Below, one piece after another: positions 51,417-58,936 of a stretch of 64,000 bases of DNA. Position 1 is the first letter of the stretch. The number at the start of each line of letters is the position of its first letter. The notes below the pieces were generated by a model. That model saw only the letters and a list, made by a program, of their open reading frames with translations. It was not told the origin of the DNA and searched no databases. This DNA is from Planctomycetota bacterium (GTDB lineage Bacteria; Planctomycetota; UBA8108; SXIK01), in NCBI GenBank assembly GCA_965223265.1, contig OZ244999.1, forward strand, positions 3,584,001-3,648,000, read 5' to 3'. A program made the translations under genes and the position numbers.

Positions 51417-52841
51417 TCAGGCCGATAGATCAAAGTAATCGAGAATCGACGCGCGGATGTCGTCGCTCTGCACCAGCTCCACGATCTTGAGGAGGCGCTT
51501 GAGGTCTCGCGTTCTTTTGGCCGCGAGTTCGTTCGAATCGACTTCCTCGCTGCGCAGGGGACGAACGAAACGATATCGCCCCAGTTCGTGAGACGGTTCG
51601 ATGGCGCCGAGCTTTTCAAGCGCCGTGACGCAGTACTCGGCGCGACGGTCGCCACGATTTCTATGCACGATCGCATCGCGCAGCTCATCGATCGAAAGAT
51701 CCGAATACGGCGTAGACTCGAAGACATGCGAGGCCTGCAGCAGGAACTCGCCCCCCGGATTCATCCACTCGACGAATTCCTGTTGGATGGCCAAATCGGC
51801 TTCGTCATAGAGAAGTGTGCAGCGAGACGGCTTGCCATCTCGGCCTGCACGCCCAACTTCCTGATAGTACGCCTCGACAGACCCGGGAATCTGAGCGTGG
51901 ATGATATAGCGGATGTCGGCCTTGTCCACGCCCATGCCAAACGCGTTGGTGGCGAGGAGCATCAGACCATCGTCAGGGCGCGATCCCGTGAATCGATCGT
52001 AGACTCGCTTTTTCTCTGCCGGCGAGAGCTGACCGTGATAGATCGCGACGCGCCGAGAACCCCATCGCGGCCTGAGTTCCAGGGCGGCCTCCTCCATGTG
52101 CTTGATCAGTGAGAAGTAGACGATTCCCGTACCGCGGCAAGCGTCGGCGATTCGGCAAATTGAGTCCACCTTGTCGCCCGCCTGCCAAACGCGCTCGACT
52201 TCGAAGGAGAGGTTCGGGCGATCGATGCCAGATGCAAAGAGCGGAATCTCTTCTTCGGTAAGGCCGAGTGTGACGCGAATGTCATCACGTACAGAGGCGG
52301 TCGCGGTCGCGGTGAGCGCGACGGTGAGGGGCGAGCCCAGGACGCGGCGAAACTCACCGATTTCGTGATACGCGGGTCGAAAGTCATGCCCCCATTTCGT
52401 AATGCAGTGAGCCTCGTCGACCGCGAGGAGCTTGACGCCACCGGGAACACTGGAAACCGCCTCGACAAACTCGGGCTTGTGCATCCGCTCAGGAGTGACA
52501 TAGATCAGCTCGTACGCGCCTTCAGCCAGCCGACTGTAGCGCTTCAGCCGCGTCTCACGGTCGAGGGTGCTGTTGATGAACTCGGCGCGGATGTTTTTTT
52601 TCTTCAGCGCGGCAACCTGATCTTGCATAAGTGCGATCAACGGGCTGAAGACAACTGTGACACCCGTCGTTGGGAGTGCCAGGGCTGGAAGCTGGTAGCA
52701 GAGGCTCTTTCCTGATCCGGTCGGCATCACCACCAAGGCGTGACGACCGGCAAGAAGGTGATCGATGATCTGCTGCTGGAGTGGGTAGAGCCGCTGAAGT
52801 CCGAAACGTTGGCTCAAAATGGTCTGAGTCGCTGCATTCAC
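51417..52841 (-). CDS. RecQ family ATP-dependent DNA helicase (short, no HRDC seen)
   Basis: MPTGSGKSLCYQLP, VDEAHC, WGHDFRP, TATA, ATNAFGMGVDK, YYQEVGRAGRDG. Confidence 0.93.
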   Translation of the reverse strand: MNAATQTILSQRFGLQRLYPLQQQIIDHLLAGRHALVVMPTGSGKSLCYQLPALALPTTGVTVVFSPLIALMQDQVAALKKKNIRAEFINSTLDRETRLKRYSRLAEGAYELIYVTPERMHKPEFVEAVSSVPGGVKLLAVDEAHCITKWGHDFRPAYHEIGEFRRVLGSPLTVALTATATASVRDDIRVTLGLTEEEIPLFASGIDRPNLSFEVERVWQAGDKVDSICRIADACRGTGIVYFSLIKHMEEAALELRPRWGSRRVAIYHGQLSPAEKKRVYDRFTGSRPDDGLMLLATNAFGMGVDKADIRYIIHAQIPGSVEAYYQEVGRAGRDGKPSRCTLLYDEADLAIQQEFVEWMNPGGEFLLQASHVFESTPYSDLSIDELRDAIVHRNRGDRRAEYCVTALEKLGAIEPSHELGRYRFVRPLRSEEVDSNELAAKRTRDLKRLLKIVELVQSDDIRASILDYFDLSA

Positions 52842-52917: not shown

Positions 52918-53646
52918 TCACTCTTCAGGATGCAAATCGAGAGGCAACGACGAGACGGCAATGTCGCCGCCGAAGCACACCTCAACATCGCGGCCGGGGT
53001 CGCGCGGACGGTTGTGGTAGTCACCTGAATAAGTGGCGACAAAGTGTCTCTCGCCTGACTGTGGCTCGATGGCGAACCGCACGCTGAGCGGCTGCGTGTC
53101 CACGGCGCAGAAGCGCAGCTCCGGCTTAGGCGCGTCGCCGCCGACGTGGGGGAGATTCACGTTCCAGAAAGTGCCCTCGCGGCGTTCCCGAGCCAACAGG
53201 AGACGCAACACGCGCGCGGTCAATTCTGCAGAGCGTTCCCAATCAATCGTCAGATCTGGCCTCAGGTACTGAGAGAGTGCGATCGAAGGGCGGGCGAGCA
53301 ATGCGGCCTCTCGTGCCGCGGCTACGGTACCCGAGACGTACGTATCAGCGCCAAGGTTGCCGCCGCTGTTGATCCCAGCGATGACAATGTCGGCGTCGGG
53401 CGCGACGTGGGTGAGTGCTACGCGGGCGCAGTCAACCGGCGTGCCGTCGACGGAATACCAGTTTTCGGTGTGGTGCTTGACGTCGATCGGGCGGTGGGTC
53501 GTGCAGGCGTGACCGACGCCCGACTGGGGAGTTCGCGGCGCGACGACGACGCAGCTTCCGAATTCCTGGCAAACGCTAAAGAGCGCTGCGAGCCCTGGCG
53601 CCTGCATGCCATCGTCGTTCGTCAGCAGCAGTTTGAGTCCAGACAC
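52918..53646 (-). CDS. surE: 5'/3'-nucleotidase SurE
   Basis: LLTNDDG, VVAP...QSGVG, GTPVDC, GINSGGNLG, SGTVAAA, NVNLP. Confidence 0.93.
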   Translation of the reverse strand: MSGLKLLLTNDDGMQAPGLAALFSVCQEFGSCVVVAPRTPQSGVGHACTTHRPIDVKHHTENWYSVDGTPVDCARVALTHVAPDADIVIAGINSGGNLGADTYVSGTVAAAREAALLARPSIALSQYLRPDLTIDWERSAELTARVLRLLLARERREGTFWNVNLPHVGGDAPKPELRFCAVDTQPLSVRFAIEPQSGERHFVATYSGDYHNRPRDPGRDVEVCFGGDIAVSSLPLDLHPEE

Positions 53647-53858
53647 GTCGTAGGCGGCTCCAAAGCTATGGCGCGATCGCAGAGTTCATCGACAGGATCA
53701 GACCAACGCGGTCTCCACGATCACTCAACTGTGAAAGCATACCGCTGCGCAGCCCAAGATTCCTCTACTGCATGCCGACCGGGCGGCGAACCCAGTTGAG
53801 TAGCACCTCCGTCGCGCGAGCTGTGGAATCACGTCGCCGCGGCCGTCGGCGCTGAACT

Positions 53859-54062
53859 TCAGGTGAGCTGCGGAACGCGATCCTCGACCGACTCGGCGGA
53901 AACGTGATCGTCTGAAATCTCCTGGAGACCCCGAATCAATTCATGGACGTGTCTCTTGGGCAAGCAAGCGTGCGCGTATTGCAGGATATCTTCGACTCGC
54001 ACGCCCATTTCCTCCATCGCCACAGCGATGTCGCAATTGCAGTCAAAACGAGGGGCTTCCAT
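53859..54062 (-). CDS. Small hypothetical protein
   Basis: 67 aa, ATG start with GGAG SD, in an otherwise empty intergenic region. Confidence 0.5.
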   Translation of the reverse strand: MEAPRFDCNCDIAVAMEEMGVRVEDILQYAHACLPKRHVHELIRGLQEISDDHVSAESVEDRVPQLT

Positions 54063-54291
54063 GATGGTCTCCGCAAGGTGTTGATTCCCTCTCCGTAGAG
54101 ACTATCGGTCAGTCACCCCTCGGTGCTTGGGTCGAACCTCACGCCAGGATGGTCCGAAAAGCTTAAGATCCTCACTCCTTCTCACTTCCCGGCGTGCAAA
54201 TGTCCGCAGGAAGGTGTCGGATCTCTGGTTCCTGTCGCATGTGGCAGGCAAGTGTGCTCGGAGAGAGCAATCGCAAGCAAGAAGCAACGGT

Positions 54292-54322
54292 ACTTAAGAT
54301 GAGGAACTTAAGATGAGGAACT
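54292..54322. repeat. Perfect 14-bp tandem duplication ACTTAAGATGAGGA x2 (+ACT)
   Basis: Read directly; lies about 25 bp past the stop of the Ku operon's last gene. Confidence 0.8.
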
Positions 54323-54346
54323 GAACGAAGCGAAAAAAAGCGGTAG

Positions 54347-55525
54347 TCAAACTTCGTCTTCCCGCAACCGCTCCCTCGCCTTGGCCGCCCAAGTGCTCCG
54401 GGGATCGAGACGCAGATACGCCCGCCAATGATGAGCGGCCTCGCTCTTGCGGCCACTCTGTGACAAGCACTCCGCGAGGTTGAAGTGAGCGTCTGCGTAC
54501 CCTGCCTCAATCGATAGCGCCCGCTGATAGGCCTCGATCGCTTTCTCCGTGTCGCCGAGATCGGCCCGTGTGTTGCCGAGGTTGTTCCACGCTTCGATGA
54601 ACTCCGGATCAAGCTCGATCGCCTGCAAGAACCGCTCAATCGCTTGTTCCTTGCGCCGCAGCGCATACAGCACATTGCCCAAGTTGAAACAGAGCTCGGG
54701 TGTGGGGCGCAGCAGCGCCAGTGCCTGGCGGTATGACTCTTCCGCCTCCTCGAGTCGTCCCAACTCTTCACAGTCGAGTCCACGCTCAAACCACTCATCG
54801 CCACTGCGCGGCGCCGGCCGTTTAAGCGAAGCGCTCTCTGTTTCGCCACTGCCGAACAGGTCTGGGAATGGAAAATAGAGTTGCCCCGTCGCGTCCGCAA
54901 CGAGCTCCTCGTCGATTCGAATGAGCACGTTTCGCTCGTCGCCGAGCCGCGTCAAGTTCACCATCGCCCCGCGCGCGCCCGGCAGCCATGACTCGAGCGC
55001 GCTGAGGCTGGCTCGAACACGGTCGACAGGCACGCCCGCTTGAATCAAATCCCACAGCGCCTTGGCCGACGCGACCTCGCGAAAGTCGAAGTAAGCCAAT
55101 CGGTGCACCGTCTTCGCAGGCTGCAGAAGACCGGCTCGCATCCAACGGCGCAGGCGGTCGCGCGAAACGCCCAGCAGGCGCACCAGCTGCGCCATCGTGT
55201 AATGTTGGTCGACCTGAGCCTGCTCCGCCCCGACCGTGAGCCGCGACAGAAACTCCTGCTCGCGCCAGACCTCGAGCTTGTGCCCCGCCCCCTGAAGCTC
55301 GCGGGCGCGCTCAAGACTGCGGGACACTCTGCCGTCGCTTGCCAGCGGCAAGCCATGGTCACCGACAACGAGCACGTCGGTTTGGCGACTTGGATAAGCG
55401 ACGACACGACCGCCAGCCTCTGCCACCGCTGCAGCGGCCTCCGTCTGCGTCATCGCAAACATCCGACCGGTGAAAGCCAGCGTCCGCCCACGCAGCTGAT
55501 CAAGGTTTACGGCCGCTTCAACCAC
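54347..55525 (-). CDS. BRCT + MerR-type HTH + TPR protein
   Basis: LRGRTLAFTGRM...EAAAAVAEAGGRV...SRQTDVLVVG...ARELQ...VWREQEFL (LigA-type BRCT); YTMAQLVRLLGVSRDRLRRWMRAGLLQP (MerR HTH); about four TPRs (FNLGNVL, AWNNLG, AHFNLA). Confidence 0.88.
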   Translation of the reverse strand: MVEAAVNLDQLRGRTLAFTGRMFAMTQTEAAAAVAEAGGRVVAYPSRQTDVLVVGDHGLPLASDGRVSRSLERARELQGAGHKLEVWREQEFLSRLTVGAEQAQVDQHYTMAQLVRLLGVSRDRLRRWMRAGLLQPAKTVHRLAYFDFREVASAKALWDLIQAGVPVDRVRASLSALESWLPGARGAMVNLTRLGDERNVLIRIDEELVADATGQLYFPFPDLFGSGETESASLKRPAPRSGDEWFERGLDCEELGRLEEAEESYRQALALLRPTPELCFNLGNVLYALRRKEQAIERFLQAIELDPEFIEAWNNLGNTRADLGDTEKAIEAYQRALSIEAGYADAHFNLAECLSQSGRKSEAAHHWRAYLRLDPRSTWAAKARERLREDEV

Positions 55526-55531
55526 TCGTTC

Positions 55532-56446
55532 TCACTCCACCCAGTATCGCTCGAAGACAGGTCCACGTAGCAGTCCCTTCGAGCTGCGCTCGAGGTAGCT
55601 TACTTTACAGTAGACGCCCGGCTCGACCCAGTGAGCAGCCAGGGCACAAGGCACGATGGGTTTAGCGCGATGCCGCGATTTCAGCAAACTAAAAAGCTCT
55701 TCGCGGGATTTCTCACGCAAACCCGAGCCGACTTTGCCAACGTAACGCAGCTCGCCCGCATCGCCAACAGCCGCGAGTGCGAGGCTCCGAAACTCATTCT
55801 CTCGAGTGAGGTACCCGATCACGACACAGTTTAGCGAGCGCCGCGGCTTCACCTTCACCCAGGCGTCGCTGCGCTGCCCAGGCGTGTAAGTACTCGTCAA
55901 ACGCTTTGCGACCATGCCTTCGAGTCCCTTTTGACACACCGCGTCGAAGAATTTGACGCCATCGCCGACCACGCCGTCGGAAAAAACGAGACGCACATCT
56001 CCTCCAAGCTTGACGACCTCCTCAAGCGTCTTTCGCCGCGCAGTGAGTGGCTCGCGCAGGAGCGGTCGAAATCGATCGTAGAGTTGATCGAACACAACAA
56101 AGGTCGCCGGGTACTCCAGGGCACCCGCCTGCCAGCGTAGGGGGCTTCTAGCCTGCTCGCGCGAAAGCAGACACTCAAAGTCAGGCTTGCCGTTTCGTAG
56201 AACGATCACCTCACCGTCGAGCACTGTCCCTGGCGGCAGCTCTGCGAACGACTCGAACTCAGGGTAACGCTCAGTGAGCTCACGTTGGCGCCGATTGACG
56301 AGTCGGTACCCGTCCGACTCGACAAACAGAAGCGCGCGGGTGCCGTCCCACTTGACCTCGAAAAGGTGCTCCGGTGAGTCGAATGGTTCGCCTGGCTGCG
56401 CGAGCATCGGCGCAATGAACTCAGGCAAACGTTGCCGCGGGGTCAC
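55532..56446 (-). CDS. ATP-dependent DNA ligase (LigD-type ligase domain only)
   Basis: PMLA, EVKWDG (motif I), LDGEV, FVVFD, EGMVAK, Y.PGQRS..WVKVK, YVGKVGSG, LRGPVF; 304 aa with no polymerase or phosphoesterase domain. Confidence 0.92.
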   Translation of the reverse strand: MTPRQRLPEFIAPMLAQPGEPFDSPEHLFEVKWDGTRALLFVESDGYRLVNRRQRELTERYPEFESFAELPPGTVLDGEVIVLRNGKPDFECLLSREQARSPLRWQAGALEYPATFVVFDQLYDRFRPLLREPLTARRKTLEEVVKLGGDVRLVFSDGVVGDGVKFFDAVCQKGLEGMVAKRLTSTYTPGQRSDAWVKVKPRRSLNCVVIGYLTRENEFRSLALAAVGDAGELRYVGKVGSGLREKSREELFSLLKSRHRAKPIVPCALAAHWVEPGVYCKVSYLERSSKGLLRGPVFERYWVE

Positions 56447-56466
56447 AGAACGTCCCTACTCGCGTC

Positions 56467-57375
56467 TTAGCCAGATTTCTTCTTCGATTTCTTCGCCTGA
56501 CTACGTTTCGCGGTGCTGGGCGCCATTTTCTTAGCGCTGCTCTTGGATGCGGAGACCTTCTTCTTCGCCGTCGTCGATTTCGCTGCACCGGTCGTCTCGA
56601 CGTTCGCGACACTCTGCTTCAGTGCATCCATCAGCTCAATGATCTGTGGCTCCTCGGTTTGCGGCGCTTCGACGATCTGCTTGCCTGCCACCTTTGCCTC
56701 GATGAGTTCAGTCAACTGTTCGACGTAGGCGTTGCGATATTGTGACAGGTCCAGTTCTTCCTGAGTCGTAGCATCCACAAGAGTCTCGGTGAGGACAACT
56801 TCGTCCTCCGCCACGTCGAGCTCGGAGACTTCGTCATCGAAAATGCTCGCGTCCTTGACGTCTGAGGCATACGACAACACACTGGCCGCAAGCAACTTCT
56901 CAAGCGGACGCACCCAAACGATCTGCTCCTTGTTCGACAGCACGATTTTGGCAAGAGCAGCGACGCCTTTTTCTTCCATGACGTGCCGTAGCAAAGCGTA
57001 AGCTTTTTGTCCGACCGGACCATCGGGCACCAGATAGTACGTACGTCCGGAGTAGTAAGAGGGATCGAGCGCATCTGCCGGATAGAACGCCTCGATCTGG
57101 ATCGCCTTGTCGCTTTGACGCCGCAGCTTGGCAAGCTCCTCAGGTTCGATGACGACGTATTGTCCCTTCGCATATTGATACCCGGAGACAATCTCGTCAC
57201 TCTGCAGCTCTCCGTGATTCGGGCAAACCTTGCGGTACTTGATGGGACTGTTGCAGTCCTTGTGCAGCTGGTTGAGACGGATCTCGCTGCCTGTCGCATG
57301 CGCAGTGAATGCCTTGACGGGAACGGAGACAAGGCTCAGCCGTAGGAATCCCTTCCAACTCGATCGTGGTGCCAT
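56467..57375 (-). CDS. ku: NHEJ protein Ku
   Basis: RSSWKGFLRLSLVSVPVK, LNQLH, IVSGYQY, YYLVP, KAYALL, LMDALKQS; Lys-rich C-terminal tail. Confidence 0.95.
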   Translation of the reverse strand: MAPRSSWKGFLRLSLVSVPVKAFTAHATGSEIRLNQLHKDCNSPIKYRKVCPNHGELQSDEIVSGYQYAKGQYVVIEPEELAKLRRQSDKAIQIEAFYPADALDPSYYSGRTYYLVPDGPVGQKAYALLRHVMEEKGVAALAKIVLSNKEQIVWVRPLEKLLAASVLSYASDVKDASIFDDEVSELDVAEDEVVLTETLVDATTQEELDLSQYRNAYVEQLTELIEAKVAGKQIVEAPQTEEPQIIELMDALKQSVANVETTGAAKSTTAKKKVSASKSSAKKMAPSTAKRSQAKKSKKKSG

Positions 57376-57414
57376 GACGATCCCTCTCGCGGAGTGTTCT
57401 GAAGACTACGGGCG

Positions 57415-57438
57415 GACGCAAGAGTGAGCGGCCATTCC
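57415..57438 (-). promoter_or_regulatory. Possible ECF-type promoter GGAAT-N15-CGTC upstream of ku
   Basis: Resembles GGAAC...CGT ECF promoters; short motif that could be chance. Confidence 0.25.
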
Positions 57439-57841
57439 CGGTCGACCACGGACGTCCGAAGAAACGTCCGGTAACGCCAACGTCTATAGAGATTGGCGAA
57501 ACGTATATCGGCAGTCCACCTCTTCCTCTGTAGTTTTCTCGTCTCGACGGCGAGGTCAGAGAGTCGCCATGACAGTGTAGCGATCCTTTTTGCTACCGGG
57601 ACAACCTGCGAGTCACCGCGCCCACAAGACGACTCGGCTCGAGGATTCGTGACGTTTGGCAATCGCCGGACACGCCGGCCAGCGCCGCACGTTGCCACAG
57701 CAGAAATCATTGACAGACGCACGAGCTGGAGTGGAACCGTCCCTCAGCCTACCGTATTCTGAGTCCTCACGAACGATCCACCGCGGCCTCGCTGGCTCGA
57801 CGATCGTCCCAAGCCAACTGAGTAACATGAGGGAACGAGGA

Positions 57842-58936
57842 ATGCAGAAAAACAAGTCAACTCGCCTGCTTCGAGCGGATCGCGAGCGTCCCACAAACCG
57901 CCGTCAGTTTCTTCGCGCGGGCGGTGCCGCCGTCCTCAGCGCCTCCCTCTCACCGACGATTCTCGGAGCCGCGCGAAGATCGAGCGACACTGACGTCGTG
58001 ATCGGCTCCGGTGAGCATAAGTATGTCGTCGATCACAACTGGGGCAAGTTACCTGCGAACGTGATCTGGGGGGACACCCACGGTGTCGCGGTCGATGCTG
58101 CGGGCTTGATCTATATCAAGCATCGTGCGACGACTGAGAAGCCGTTGGACGCGATCGTCGTCTTCGACCCGGATGGCAACGCGGTTCGCTCGTTCGGCAA
58201 GGAATATCATCGCGGCGGTCACGGCATCGATGTCCGCAATGAAAATGGAGAAGAATTCCTCTATCTATCCGATGTCTACAATCGCCAAGTCGTCAAGACA
58301 TCACTGACCGGCGAACAAGTGTGGCGCATCGAAGCGCCACCTGAGCCTGGGGTGTATGGGGTGAACGCGATCTTTCGTCCTACCAATATTGCGTTTGCAC
58401 CCGACGGCGGGTTTTACATCGGTGACGGCTACGGATCGCACTACATCCACCAGTACGACAAAGATGCCAGCTGGGTGCGCACGTGGGGTGGTGTTGGAAG
58501 TCAACCGGGACAAATGAAGACACCGCACGGAATGTGGCTCGACGATCGCCCCGGTCGCACGCCGTCGATCGTCGTGGCCGACCGCGCCAACGCTCGGCTG
58601 CAGTACTTTTCGCTCACCGGCGAACACCTTGGATTCGTGGACGACGTCAGCTTTCCGGCGGACATCGACATCGCCGGCGACAAGATGCTTGTTCCGGATC
58701 TCCACGCACGCGTTTCGATCTTCGACAAGGACAACCAGCCGATCATCCATCTCGGCTATGACCCGGAGTGGACCAAGACGGTCCTCGACGGATTCAAGCT
58801 ACGTCGTGAGCCAAAACGCTGGCAGGCCGGAAAGTTCATCCATCCACATGATGCTTGCTTCGACAAGGACGGAAACATCTTCGTCGTCGAGTGGGTGCCG
58901 ACAGGGCGAGTCACGAAGCTCACTCGAGTGAGCTGA
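57842..58936 (+). CDS. Tat-exported NHL-repeat (six-bladed propeller) protein
   Basis: TNRRQFLR; THGVAVD, PTNIAFAPDG...DGYG, TPHG, VADRANARLQ, HPHDACFD. Confidence 0.88.
   Translation: MQKNKSTRLLRADRERPTNRRQFLRAGGAAVLSASLSPTILGAARRSSDTDVVIGSGEHKYVVDHNWGKLPANVIWGDTHGVAVDAAGLIYIKHRATTEKPLDAIVVFDPDGNAVRSFGKEYHRGGHGIDVRNENGEEFLYLSDVYNRQVVKTSLTGEQVWRIEAPPEPGVYGVNAIFRPTNIAFAPDGGFYIGDGYGSHYIHQYDKDASWVRTWGGVGSQPGQMKTPHGMWLDDRPGRTPSIVVADRANARLQYFSLTGEHLGFVDDVSFPADIDIAGDKMLVPDLHARVSIFDKDNQPIIHLGYDPEWTKTVLDGFKLRREPKRWQAGKFIHPHDACFDKDGNIFVVEWVPTGRVTKLTRVS

Follow-up and report, generated by a model that had tools for sequence, protein, structure and literature searches.

A third gene conserved behind ku: a BRCT/MerR-type helix-turn-helix/TPR protein as a candidate partner or regulator in the end joining of Planctomycetota and Acidobacteriota

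The DNA analyzed here (referred to as the window) is a stretch of 64,000 nucleotides from the genome of a Planctomycetota bacterium, which is assembled as a single 9.18-Mb contig (OZ244999.1); the window corresponds to positions 3584001–3648000 of this contig. It contains three minus-strand open reading frames (ORFs), in the order ku, ligase and a third gene designated X, which encode a bacterial Ku protein, a stand-alone ATP-dependent DNA ligase and a protein combining a BRCT domain, a MerR-type winged helix-turn-helix (HTH) and tetratricopeptide repeats (TPRs) (Table 1). The original prediction, made from the sequence alone, had read these genes as a candidate three-component system of bacterial non-homologous end joining (NHEJ), and the close spacing on which it relied was confirmed from the ORF coordinates: the ligase gene starts 20 nt past the ku stop codon, and the GTG of X, with a GGAG upstream, lies 6 nt past the ligase stop. 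GTG is the start codon of all three genes, and a purine-rich stretch lies ahead of each of them. Consensus scans detected no terminator within the operon or between its genes, and no sigma-70-like promoter (0 sites) in the region 53600–57900. The arrangement is far beyond chance. In several phyla, many genomes have these genes in the identical order.

Table 1. Features of the ku-ligase-X operon and of the distantly encoded LigD-like protein (positions in the window unless stated otherwise).
Feature	Position	Strand	Description
Region upstream of ku	57376..57655	-	No located promoter; holds an imperfect 24-bp palindrome (57475-57498)
ku	56467..57375	-	Bacterial Ku, 302 aa
Stand-alone ATP-dependent DNA ligase	55532..56446	-	304 aa; nucleotidyltransferase (NTase) and OB domains only, LigD-ligase-domain type
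X	54347..55525	-	392 aa; BRCT / MerR-type winged HTH / family-specific middle segment / TPR
BRCT domain of X	55238..55504	-	aa ~8-96; LigA/RFC1 type; structure and sequence matches
MerR-type winged HTH of X	54995..55201	-	aa 109-177; PF13411
Family-specific middle segment of X	54860..54994	-	aa 178-222; consensus WLP...LLVRL.DG.LAEP.GQL.FDF
TPR domain of X	54353..54802	-	aa 242-391; about 4.5 repeats and a capping helix
LigD-like PE-NTase-POL protein	contig 8893331-8895463, outside the window	+	710 aa; sole phosphoesterase (PE) and polymerase (POL) domains in the genome

The product of the first gene matches the Ku family PF02735 (E 1.5e-44) and model TIGR02772 (250.9 bits, cut-off 150) over profile positions 1–259 of 259, and gave the single Ku match obtained in the whole genome. 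A KKMAPS-like motif and a basic end are found in its C-terminal tail, as they are in other X-linked planctomycete Ku proteins. In these proteins KK[ML]APS is placed between the conserved NLMDALK.SV region and the K/R-rich basic end (window positions 56467–56560 for the Ku C-terminus), and it is absent from those Ku proteins of the phylum that have no X linked to them (24–38% identity). The motif could be a ligand of the TPR domain or could simply reflect shared descent. It was dropped as a marker of X linkage: its carriers are closely related, so that shared descent could explain it, and the tails of acidobacterial X-linked Ku proteins differ.

The ligase contains the domains PF01068 (E 1.3e-30, 107.1 bits) and PF04679 (E 1.6e-14, 54.5 bits), both above their cut-offs, and an intact motif I (FEVKWDGTR, i.e. 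KWDG). Among NCBIfam models, TIGR02779 (NHEJ ligase domain) scores highest, its 216.5 bits falling just short of the cut-off of 227.75. No other domain is present, and thus the protein lacks the fused POL and/or PE that characterizes multidomain LigD.

Whether the PE and POL domains of LigD are encoded elsewhere in the genome had been left as a question, and the answer is positive. Each occurs in one copy, and both are in the 710-aa ORF, 5.25 Mb from the operon. The genome contains two ligase NTase domains. In the NTase-like middle domain of the 710-aa protein, motif I reads FEPEFDGKR, with Glu instead of the AMP-accepting Lys, and only ~49 residues separate NTase from POL, with no OB domain. 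The role of the motif I lysine in ligases is well established, and the missing catalytic Lys and OB fold explain the presence of a stand-alone ligase. The same pairing was observed more widely: in 15 distinct loci with a stand-alone ligase beside ku, the Lys is missing from the neighboring PE-NTase-POL protein (mostly E-[ML]-E-F-A-G), whereas LigD keeps K-[FW]-D-G in the 9 distinct loci without such a ligase. Since the Lys-less form co-occurs with the stand-alone ligase and the intact motif is found where there is none, we conclude that the bare enzyme is the functional ligase part of a LigD divided over two genes; the LigD-like proteins look like carriers of a conserved pseudo-ligase domain, with ligase activity supplied in trans.

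Profile and structure matches showed that the three domains originally proposed for X (BRCT, MerR-like HTH and TPRs) are real. A full-length AlphaFold2 (AF2) model, built from a 45-sequence alignment, had a pLDDT (predicted local distance difference test) score of 88.8. Since Foldseek searches with this model returned TPR proteins only, the N-terminal 230 residues were folded separately (aa 1–230, pLDDT 85.6).

The match of the N-terminus to the Pfam BRCT family (PF00533) is below threshold (19.9 vs 21.3 bits), but several other lines of evidence identify the domain: (i) in NCBIfam it matches the BRCT ends of the DnaQ-type model NF004844 (E 1.6e-10) and of LigA; (ii) phmmer aligns it to residues 598–644 of Escherichia coli LigA, an alignment that preserves the TG and S-[KR]-x-T positions; (iii) Foldseek pairs its model with the LigA BRCT 9a6z_B (E 5.4e-5, root-mean-square deviation (rmsd) 1.5 Å over 86 columns) and also with the RFC1 BRCT 2ebu; and (iv) VIA-align superimposes it on the model of the RFC p140 BRCT with double-stranded DNA, 2k7f (Z 10.0, rmsd 2.5 Å over 84 residues). 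Within the family, G20 is invariant, R21 nearly so, and the T-G and R/K-x-T positions are kept. Fold and pocket residues thus confirm that the N-terminus of X is a BRCT domain of the LigA/RFC1 class.

The HTH matches MerR_1 (PF13411) over aa 109–176 with 42.9 bits (cut-off 21.6), covering profile positions 1–68 of 69; W128 is invariant and the canonical R-x-W...GL pattern is present. In the AF2 models the winged HTH spans aa 111–177. Its structural matches in VIA-align include SkgA (Z 7.9), SoxR (7.8), CbpM (7.7), TipAL (7.6), TnrA (7.3) and DafA (6.8), values that denote a common fold only, and Foldseek added the GlnR-DNA complex 4r4e.

The segment that follows (aa 178–222) is covered by no Pfam family. 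It represents a signature of the X family itself: across an alignment of 45 sequences Q215 does not vary, and W180, R203, G214 and F220 each reach a conservation of at least 90%. Both AF2 models place here, at a pLDDT of 60–70, a 14-residue helix (184–197) and a small β-hairpin (201–211); these 14 residues are all that the models, at this lower local confidence, make helical at the position of the long coiled coil of MerR proteins. In MerR-family members of the GlnR/TnrA type, the long dimerization helix is absent. A disordered linker (~aa 222–240) leads to the TPR domain, which matches TPR_2 (PF07719) in four stretches (102.1 bits, E 3.3e-30, aa ~245–385) and is modeled as ten helices with a pLDDT of 91–98. 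Its Foldseek matches include consensus TPR proteins (rmsd 1.0–1.6 Å) and the TPR domain of OGT.

The distribution of X relative to ku was examined at several levels. Among 40 close relatives, a strong X match (E≤1e-38) was obtained in seven and a Ku match over the cut-off in six, all of them within those seven. BLAST analysis of the fetched loci revealed the Ku-Lig-X order on one strand in six of the seven X loci; in three of them, the other strand encodes a LigD-like protein of 694–750 aa just ahead of ku. The seventh relative (95% complete) has X but no Ku.

An even sample of the phylum comprised 301 genomes at least 85% complete, including the source genome, and X was scored with its aa 1–240 at E≤1e-8. 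Ku exceeded its cut-off in 42 genomes and X was found in 38, with both present in 21. In 19 of these 21, X and ku share contig and strand and are no more than 3.3 kb apart; the other two are exceptions. Of the 21 Ku-positive genomes scored as X-negative, 20 were then inspected at their ku loci, with one genome left out. In three of them, a BRCT-less MerR-TPR gene follows ku or ku-lig; the remaining 17 encode a Ku only 24–38% identical to that of the window, with a canonical LigD or tandem ku nearby. In total, X is adjacent to ku in 22 of the 42 Ku-positive genomes, distributed over 13 family codes.

The Acidobacteriota sample, likewise an even one, contained 201 genomes, of which three unpublished ones were left out (n=198). 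Ku was detected in 70 genomes and the core of X in 58, with 44 containing both; in 28 of the 70, the X core immediately follows ku in the same orientation. In both phyla X is 5 to 9 times commoner in Ku-positive genomes (24/42 vs 17/259 in the planctomycete sample, 44/70 vs 14/128 in Acidobacteriota), a ratio to which no P value was attached because related genomes are not independent. As a separate observation, the ku gene beside X appears to be split or frameshifted in three acidobacterial genomes (two adjacent partial matches, or one TGA inside).

In a collection with one genome per species, 80 X loci were found with a nine-row alignment and sorted by tblastn; ku is immediately upstream of X in 28 of them. 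BRCT-bearing X genes account for 20 loci, with ku upstream on the same strand in 12 (in 4 of these with a ligase gene between), the ligase alone in one, and neither in 7. Forms without the BRCT (ORFs of ~290–310 aa that start at the HTH) account for 55 loci, with ku upstream in 16 (7 with a ligase gene between) and neither in 39; the remaining five loci hold partial forms. The record titles of the Ku-linked loci name Planctomycetota, Acidobacteriota, Chthoniobacterales, Spirochaetia, Brocadiaceae and Candidatus Cybelea, several of them being metagenome-assembled genomes (MAGs). In 43 distinct Ku-linked loci the gap between X and the gene upstream has a median of 7 nt and is ≤50 nt in 29, with many 4-nt stop/start overlaps; the starts of X were set by a fixed rule in this survey, and single gap values are therefore approximate.

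The ku-X linkage is thus strong and spans phyla, in agreement with the enrichment that was to be expected if the three genes form a system: X genes are strongly enriched directly downstream of ku. Since the BRCT and the stand-alone ligase vary independently, and since X directly follows ku also where LigD is intact, the constant partner of X is Ku and not the minimal ligase; the constant part of X is its MerR-HTH/TPR core, the BRCT being optional.

X belongs to a large family. A word-index homology search gave only three relatives of X besides the query, and an exhaustive search with aa 1–240 was used instead; at E-value limits of 1e-3, 1e-10 and 1e-30, the numbers of cluster representatives were 1353, 555 and 135, respectively. 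Among the matches listed, the homologs are mostly 370–430 aa long and match aa ~10–222, Planctomycetota is the commonest phylum, and the automatic Atlas name of the clusters is "MerR family transcriptional regulator".

A tree of 115 distinct sequences (quick IQ-TREE run with SH-aLRT (Shimodaira–Hasegawa-like approximate likelihood ratio test) support, midpoint root for drawing only) places the window X in a planctomycete group of 47 rows, 35 of which are Ku-linked. BRCT-less subclades that retain the Ku-Lig-X order are nested among the BRCT-bearing sequences of this group. The other half of the tree contains a Ku-linked subclade of Candidatus Acidoferrum and a large unlinked clade of Bryobacterales/Terriglobia. 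Ku linkage is therefore present in both halves of the tree, and the sequences indicate that the BRCT was lost or gained several times. One genome holds a Ku-linked and an unlinked copy, one in each of two clades, and these clades are therefore paralogs. The unlinked BRCT-MerR-TPR paralogs of family code f9 and its neighbors derive in many cases from complete genomes. At one locus (genome G150, contig C4, 217152–219176) two X-like genes stand in tandem, both on long branches.

The region upstream of ku was searched for signals of a regulator. In the window it contains an imperfect palindrome (CGCCAACGTCTA / TAGAGATTGGCG) with 12-nt arms, 83% complementary, ~100–120 nt upstream of the ku start; this palindrome was not found upstream of ku at the other loci compared. 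In 35 planctomycete-type and 12 acidobacterial-type loci, neither k-mers (k = 6–8) nor shared inverted-repeat half-sites (k = 5–6, spacer 0–14) upstream of ku rose above shuffled controls. A CCGATA-like word noticed by eye upstream of several ku genes was dropped, as it is confined to 8 of 35 loci and all k-mer counts stay within the range of the shuffles. Promoters of acidobacterial ku genes, read by eye, have spacers of 17–18 nt, while those of MerR-type promoters are typically 19–20 nt long. These negatives constitute weak evidence, because operators can diverge together with their regulators.

Taken together, X is probably either a third partner or a dedicated regulator in bacterial end joining. 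The interpretation favored here, with a probability of roughly 45%, is that it acts as a Ku-coupled accessory (adaptor) protein of a variant NHEJ pathway and works on broken DNA. X would be expressed from a single operon along with Ku and, in the present genome, with the stand-alone ligase as well. Its MerR-type winged helix would hold duplex DNA, and in the planctomycete form the LigA/RFC1-type BRCT may hold a 5′-phosphate DNA end or a nick, as its conserved pocket residues suggest. Such a function is known for related domains: the RFC1 BRCT is reported to bind DNA ends through a conserved pocket (PMC6334254) and the LigA BRCT to aid nick joining (PMC10386641). The TPR domain would hold a peptide of a partner, most likely of Ku, since Ku is the only constant neighbor, and X could then act on Ku-bound ends as a modulator or scaffold, both for the ligase and for the PE/POL protein encoded elsewhere. 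The domain architecture, the operon structure and the linkage to ku across phyla are what the analysis shows; that X binds DNA ends and Ku and acts at the break is what we infer. A complex prediction for two Ku chains with aa 100–392 of X, run without controls, scored 0.07 (mark 0.32) and speaks neither for nor against binding.

In favor of the adaptor role are the linkage of X to ku among the close relatives, in both phylum samples and in the one-genome-per-species collection, the tight spacing within the operon, the Ku-linked members in both halves of the tree, the LigA/RFC1 kind of BRCT, and the regions upstream of ku, in which no conserved k-mer or dyad was found and the acidobacterial spacers measure 17–18 nt. 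Several observations weigh against it. MerR_1, matched well above the Pfam threshold, is a transcription-factor domain in nearly all studied proteins, and HTH plus TPR is the classic architecture of the RRNPP regulators. About half of the Ku-positive genomes have no X, and X is therefore not needed for NHEJ in general. Conversely, X occurs where Ku does not: most of the 17 planctomycete genomes with X and no Ku match over the cut-off belong to family code f9, in which X is present in 16 of 16 genomes and Ku in only 3, and to these are added the 14 Ku-negative acidobacterial genomes. A separate clade of the tree (SH-aLRT 97; 17 rows from family codes f9, f79 and f93) has no Ku-linked member. 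In 40 genomes with unlinked X, Ku is encoded elsewhere in 28 and is missing from 12; these 12 include the complete genome of Telmatobacter bradus as well as six of the eight planctomycete MAGs, to which the caveat of MAG incompleteness applies.

The closest competitor of the adaptor reading, which we consider possible although somewhat less probable, is that X is a MerR-family feedback regulator encoded, in the manner of HspR, by the last gene of the operon that it controls. The sensor of free Ku or of broken DNA would be its TPR domain, joined by the BRCT in those members that have one, and titration of Ku onto DNA ends would alter the transcription of ku, lig and X. The canonical MerR_1 HTH, the DNA-bound MerR-type regulators among its nearest structures (SkgA, SoxR, TipAL, TnrA and GlnR), the HTH+TPR architecture, the terminal position in the operon and the automatic cluster names are all in line with such a role. 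The same is true of the persistence of X in Ku-less genomes, which is easier to understand for a regulator, and of the acidobacterial ligD genes that diverge from ku-X, a layout common for MerR-type regulators. On the other hand, no k-mer or inverted repeat is common to the regions upstream of ku, the palindrome of the window is not conserved, the ku promoter spacers are 17–18 nt long, the models show a 14-residue helix where MerR regulators have a long dimerization coiled coil, and the LigA/RFC1-type BRCT is a module of repair proteins rather than of transcription factors. Overall, these negatives are weak, given that operators drift and structural models are predictions. The two roles also share an expectation, as both an adaptor and a feedback regulator are predicted to bind Ku.

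HspR, a repressor of the MerR family, is the product of the last gene of the dnaK operon and uses DnaK as its corepressor. X resembles it in that its gene, too, closes an operon and encodes a MerR-type HTH protein for which the main operon product is a possible ligand, but HspR has neither TPR nor BRCT, and nothing comparable to the HspR binding motif was found upstream of ku. CbpM, encoded in the cbpA-cbpM operon, and DafA are MerR-fold proteins that bind the product of the gene upstream. The HTH region of X aligns with CbpM (3ucs, Z 7.7) and DafA (9dvi, Z 6.8), both of which, to judge from the PDB titles, are in complexes with chaperone partners and not with DNA. However, Z values in this range indicate the common fold only (rmsd 8.6 Å for CbpM), and X differs in retaining the MerR DNA-binding signature and in its additional BRCT and TPR domains. 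Finally, the RRNPP regulators (PlcR, Rgg, NprR) combine an XRE-type HTH with TPRs and respond to secreted peptides. X likewise has an HTH followed by a TPR domain of the ligand-binding type, but its HTH is of the MerR type and the protein has no Pfam or NCBIfam match to RRNPP families.

A stronger form of the adaptor reading, which is rather unlikely on present indications, would make X a true third structural subunit of a widespread end-joining machine, its BRCT gripping the 5′-phosphate, its winged helix the duplex and its TPR the tail of Ku. Such a subunit would synapse or hand over the ends, or help to load or remove Ku rings, and would be a functional analog, independently arisen, of the eukaryotic XRCC4/XLF/XRCC1 scaffolds. 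NHEJ in these lineages would then consist of Ku, ligase, a PE-POL protein with a pseudo-ligase domain, and X, instead of Ku plus LigD. Any likeness to the XRCC4-ligase IV and XRCC1 scaffolds, namely a non-catalytic BRCT protein beside Ku and a ligase, is one of functional analogy only: the BRCT domains of ligase IV (3ii6) and XRCC1 (2d8m) gave Z values of 8.0 and 7.7, lower than that of RFC1, homology is limited to the BRCT fold, and X differs from these eukaryotic NHEJ and single-strand break repair scaffolds in having an HTH and TPRs. LigA and RFC1 provide the best sequence and structure matches of the X N-terminus, with the T-G/basic-x-T pocket kept, but X joins this BRCT to a MerR HTH and TPRs and not to a ligase or clamp loader, and the domain is missing from many Ku-linked members of the family.

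It is improbable that X has no functional tie to NHEJ and is a general regulator or TPR protein travelling with ku by descent or operon hitch-hiking. The many stand-alone members with heterogeneous neighbors would be expected in this case: the 119 ORFs neighboring X at the 40 unlinked loci have no common theme (DUF2760 downstream in five, FeoB divergent in five, RecQ downstream in one), and the Ku-independent f9 clade has serine hydroxymethyltransferase as its sole recurrent neighbor (5 loci). Against this stand the recurrence of the adjacency across phyla, ligase arrangements and both halves of the tree, the 5- to 9-fold higher frequency of X in Ku-positive genomes (which, being related, are not independent) and the frequent stop/start overlaps.

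The least probable of the explanations considered is the narrower reading put forward in the original prediction, i.e. that X supplies the bare ligase in trans with a BRCT/TPR recruitment module bridging it to Ku, much as the BRCTs of ligase IV are used with XRCC4: the Ku-Lig-X order in the window and six relatives, the absence of extra domains from the ligase and the dead ligase domain of the LigD-like protein, which leaves the active ligase separate from PE/POL and possibly in need of a tether, would all suit it, but it fits poorly with the ligase being found beside 4 of 12 BRCT forms and 7 of 16 BRCT-less forms among the Ku-linked loci, with the BRCT-less subclades that retain Ku-Lig-X within the BRCT-bearing group, and with the nine loci in which LigD is intact and multidomain, no stand-alone ligase is present, and X still directly follows ku.

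Downstream of X, on the minus strand, lie genes for SurE (52918–53646) and for a 474-aa RecQ-like protein with DEAD and Helicase_C domains (51417–52841). They were rejected as conserved neighbors of X, as neither had a match in the loci of the seven relatives, and RecQ adjoins X in only one of the 80 loci of the one-genome-per-species collection. A RecQ with an HRDC domain was noted downstream of an X homolog at one acidobacterial locus. Between X and surE there is an ORF of 67 aa (53859–54062, minus strand) with no Pfam, NCBIfam or PADLOC match. Ku and the ligase gave no match to the PADLOC models of defense systems, the sole match in the operon being a weak one of the X HTH to mad1 (E 2.9e-7, aa 106–152); X belongs to no PADLOC anti-phage defense system.

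Published work presents bacterial NHEJ as a two-component system of Ku and LigD (PMC7969030, PMC12784962). The window system resembles those of Mycobacterium, Bacillus subtilis and Pseudomonas in having a Ku of the homodimer type side by side with a LigD-type ligase, as well as PE and POL domains in the genome, and its Ku has the minimal C-terminal region and basic extension known from bacterial Ku proteins (PMC4889933). It differs in that (i) the ligase is a separate 304-aa protein, (ii) PE and POL reside in a distant protein whose ligase domain has neither catalytic Lys nor OB fold, and (iii) a conserved third gene, X, follows ku. No description of a ku-linked MerR/TPR/BRCT gene was found in the open-access full-text literature. 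Term searches gave no mention of MerR, TPR, BRCT, operon or gene neighbors in a 2025 paper on Ku evolution (PMC11936186), and none of MerR or tetratricopeptide in a BRCT review (PMC10386641).

Where a LigD with a conserved dead ligase domain is paired with an active ligase encoded on its own, nature provides a clear case of a domain that decayed and was replaced in trans, and this arrangement offers a rationale for a possible need for an additional factor with a tethering or regulatory role. As for X, its biochemical role is that of a candidate predicted from domains and gene context. In two large environmental phyla, roughly 40–50% of the Ku-bearing genomes have a third gene linked to ku, and the gene also lies beside ku in MAGs labeled as further phyla. 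This linkage makes two questions directly testable: how bacterial Ku is regulated, recruited or removed, and whether bacteria have non-catalytic NHEJ scaffolds.

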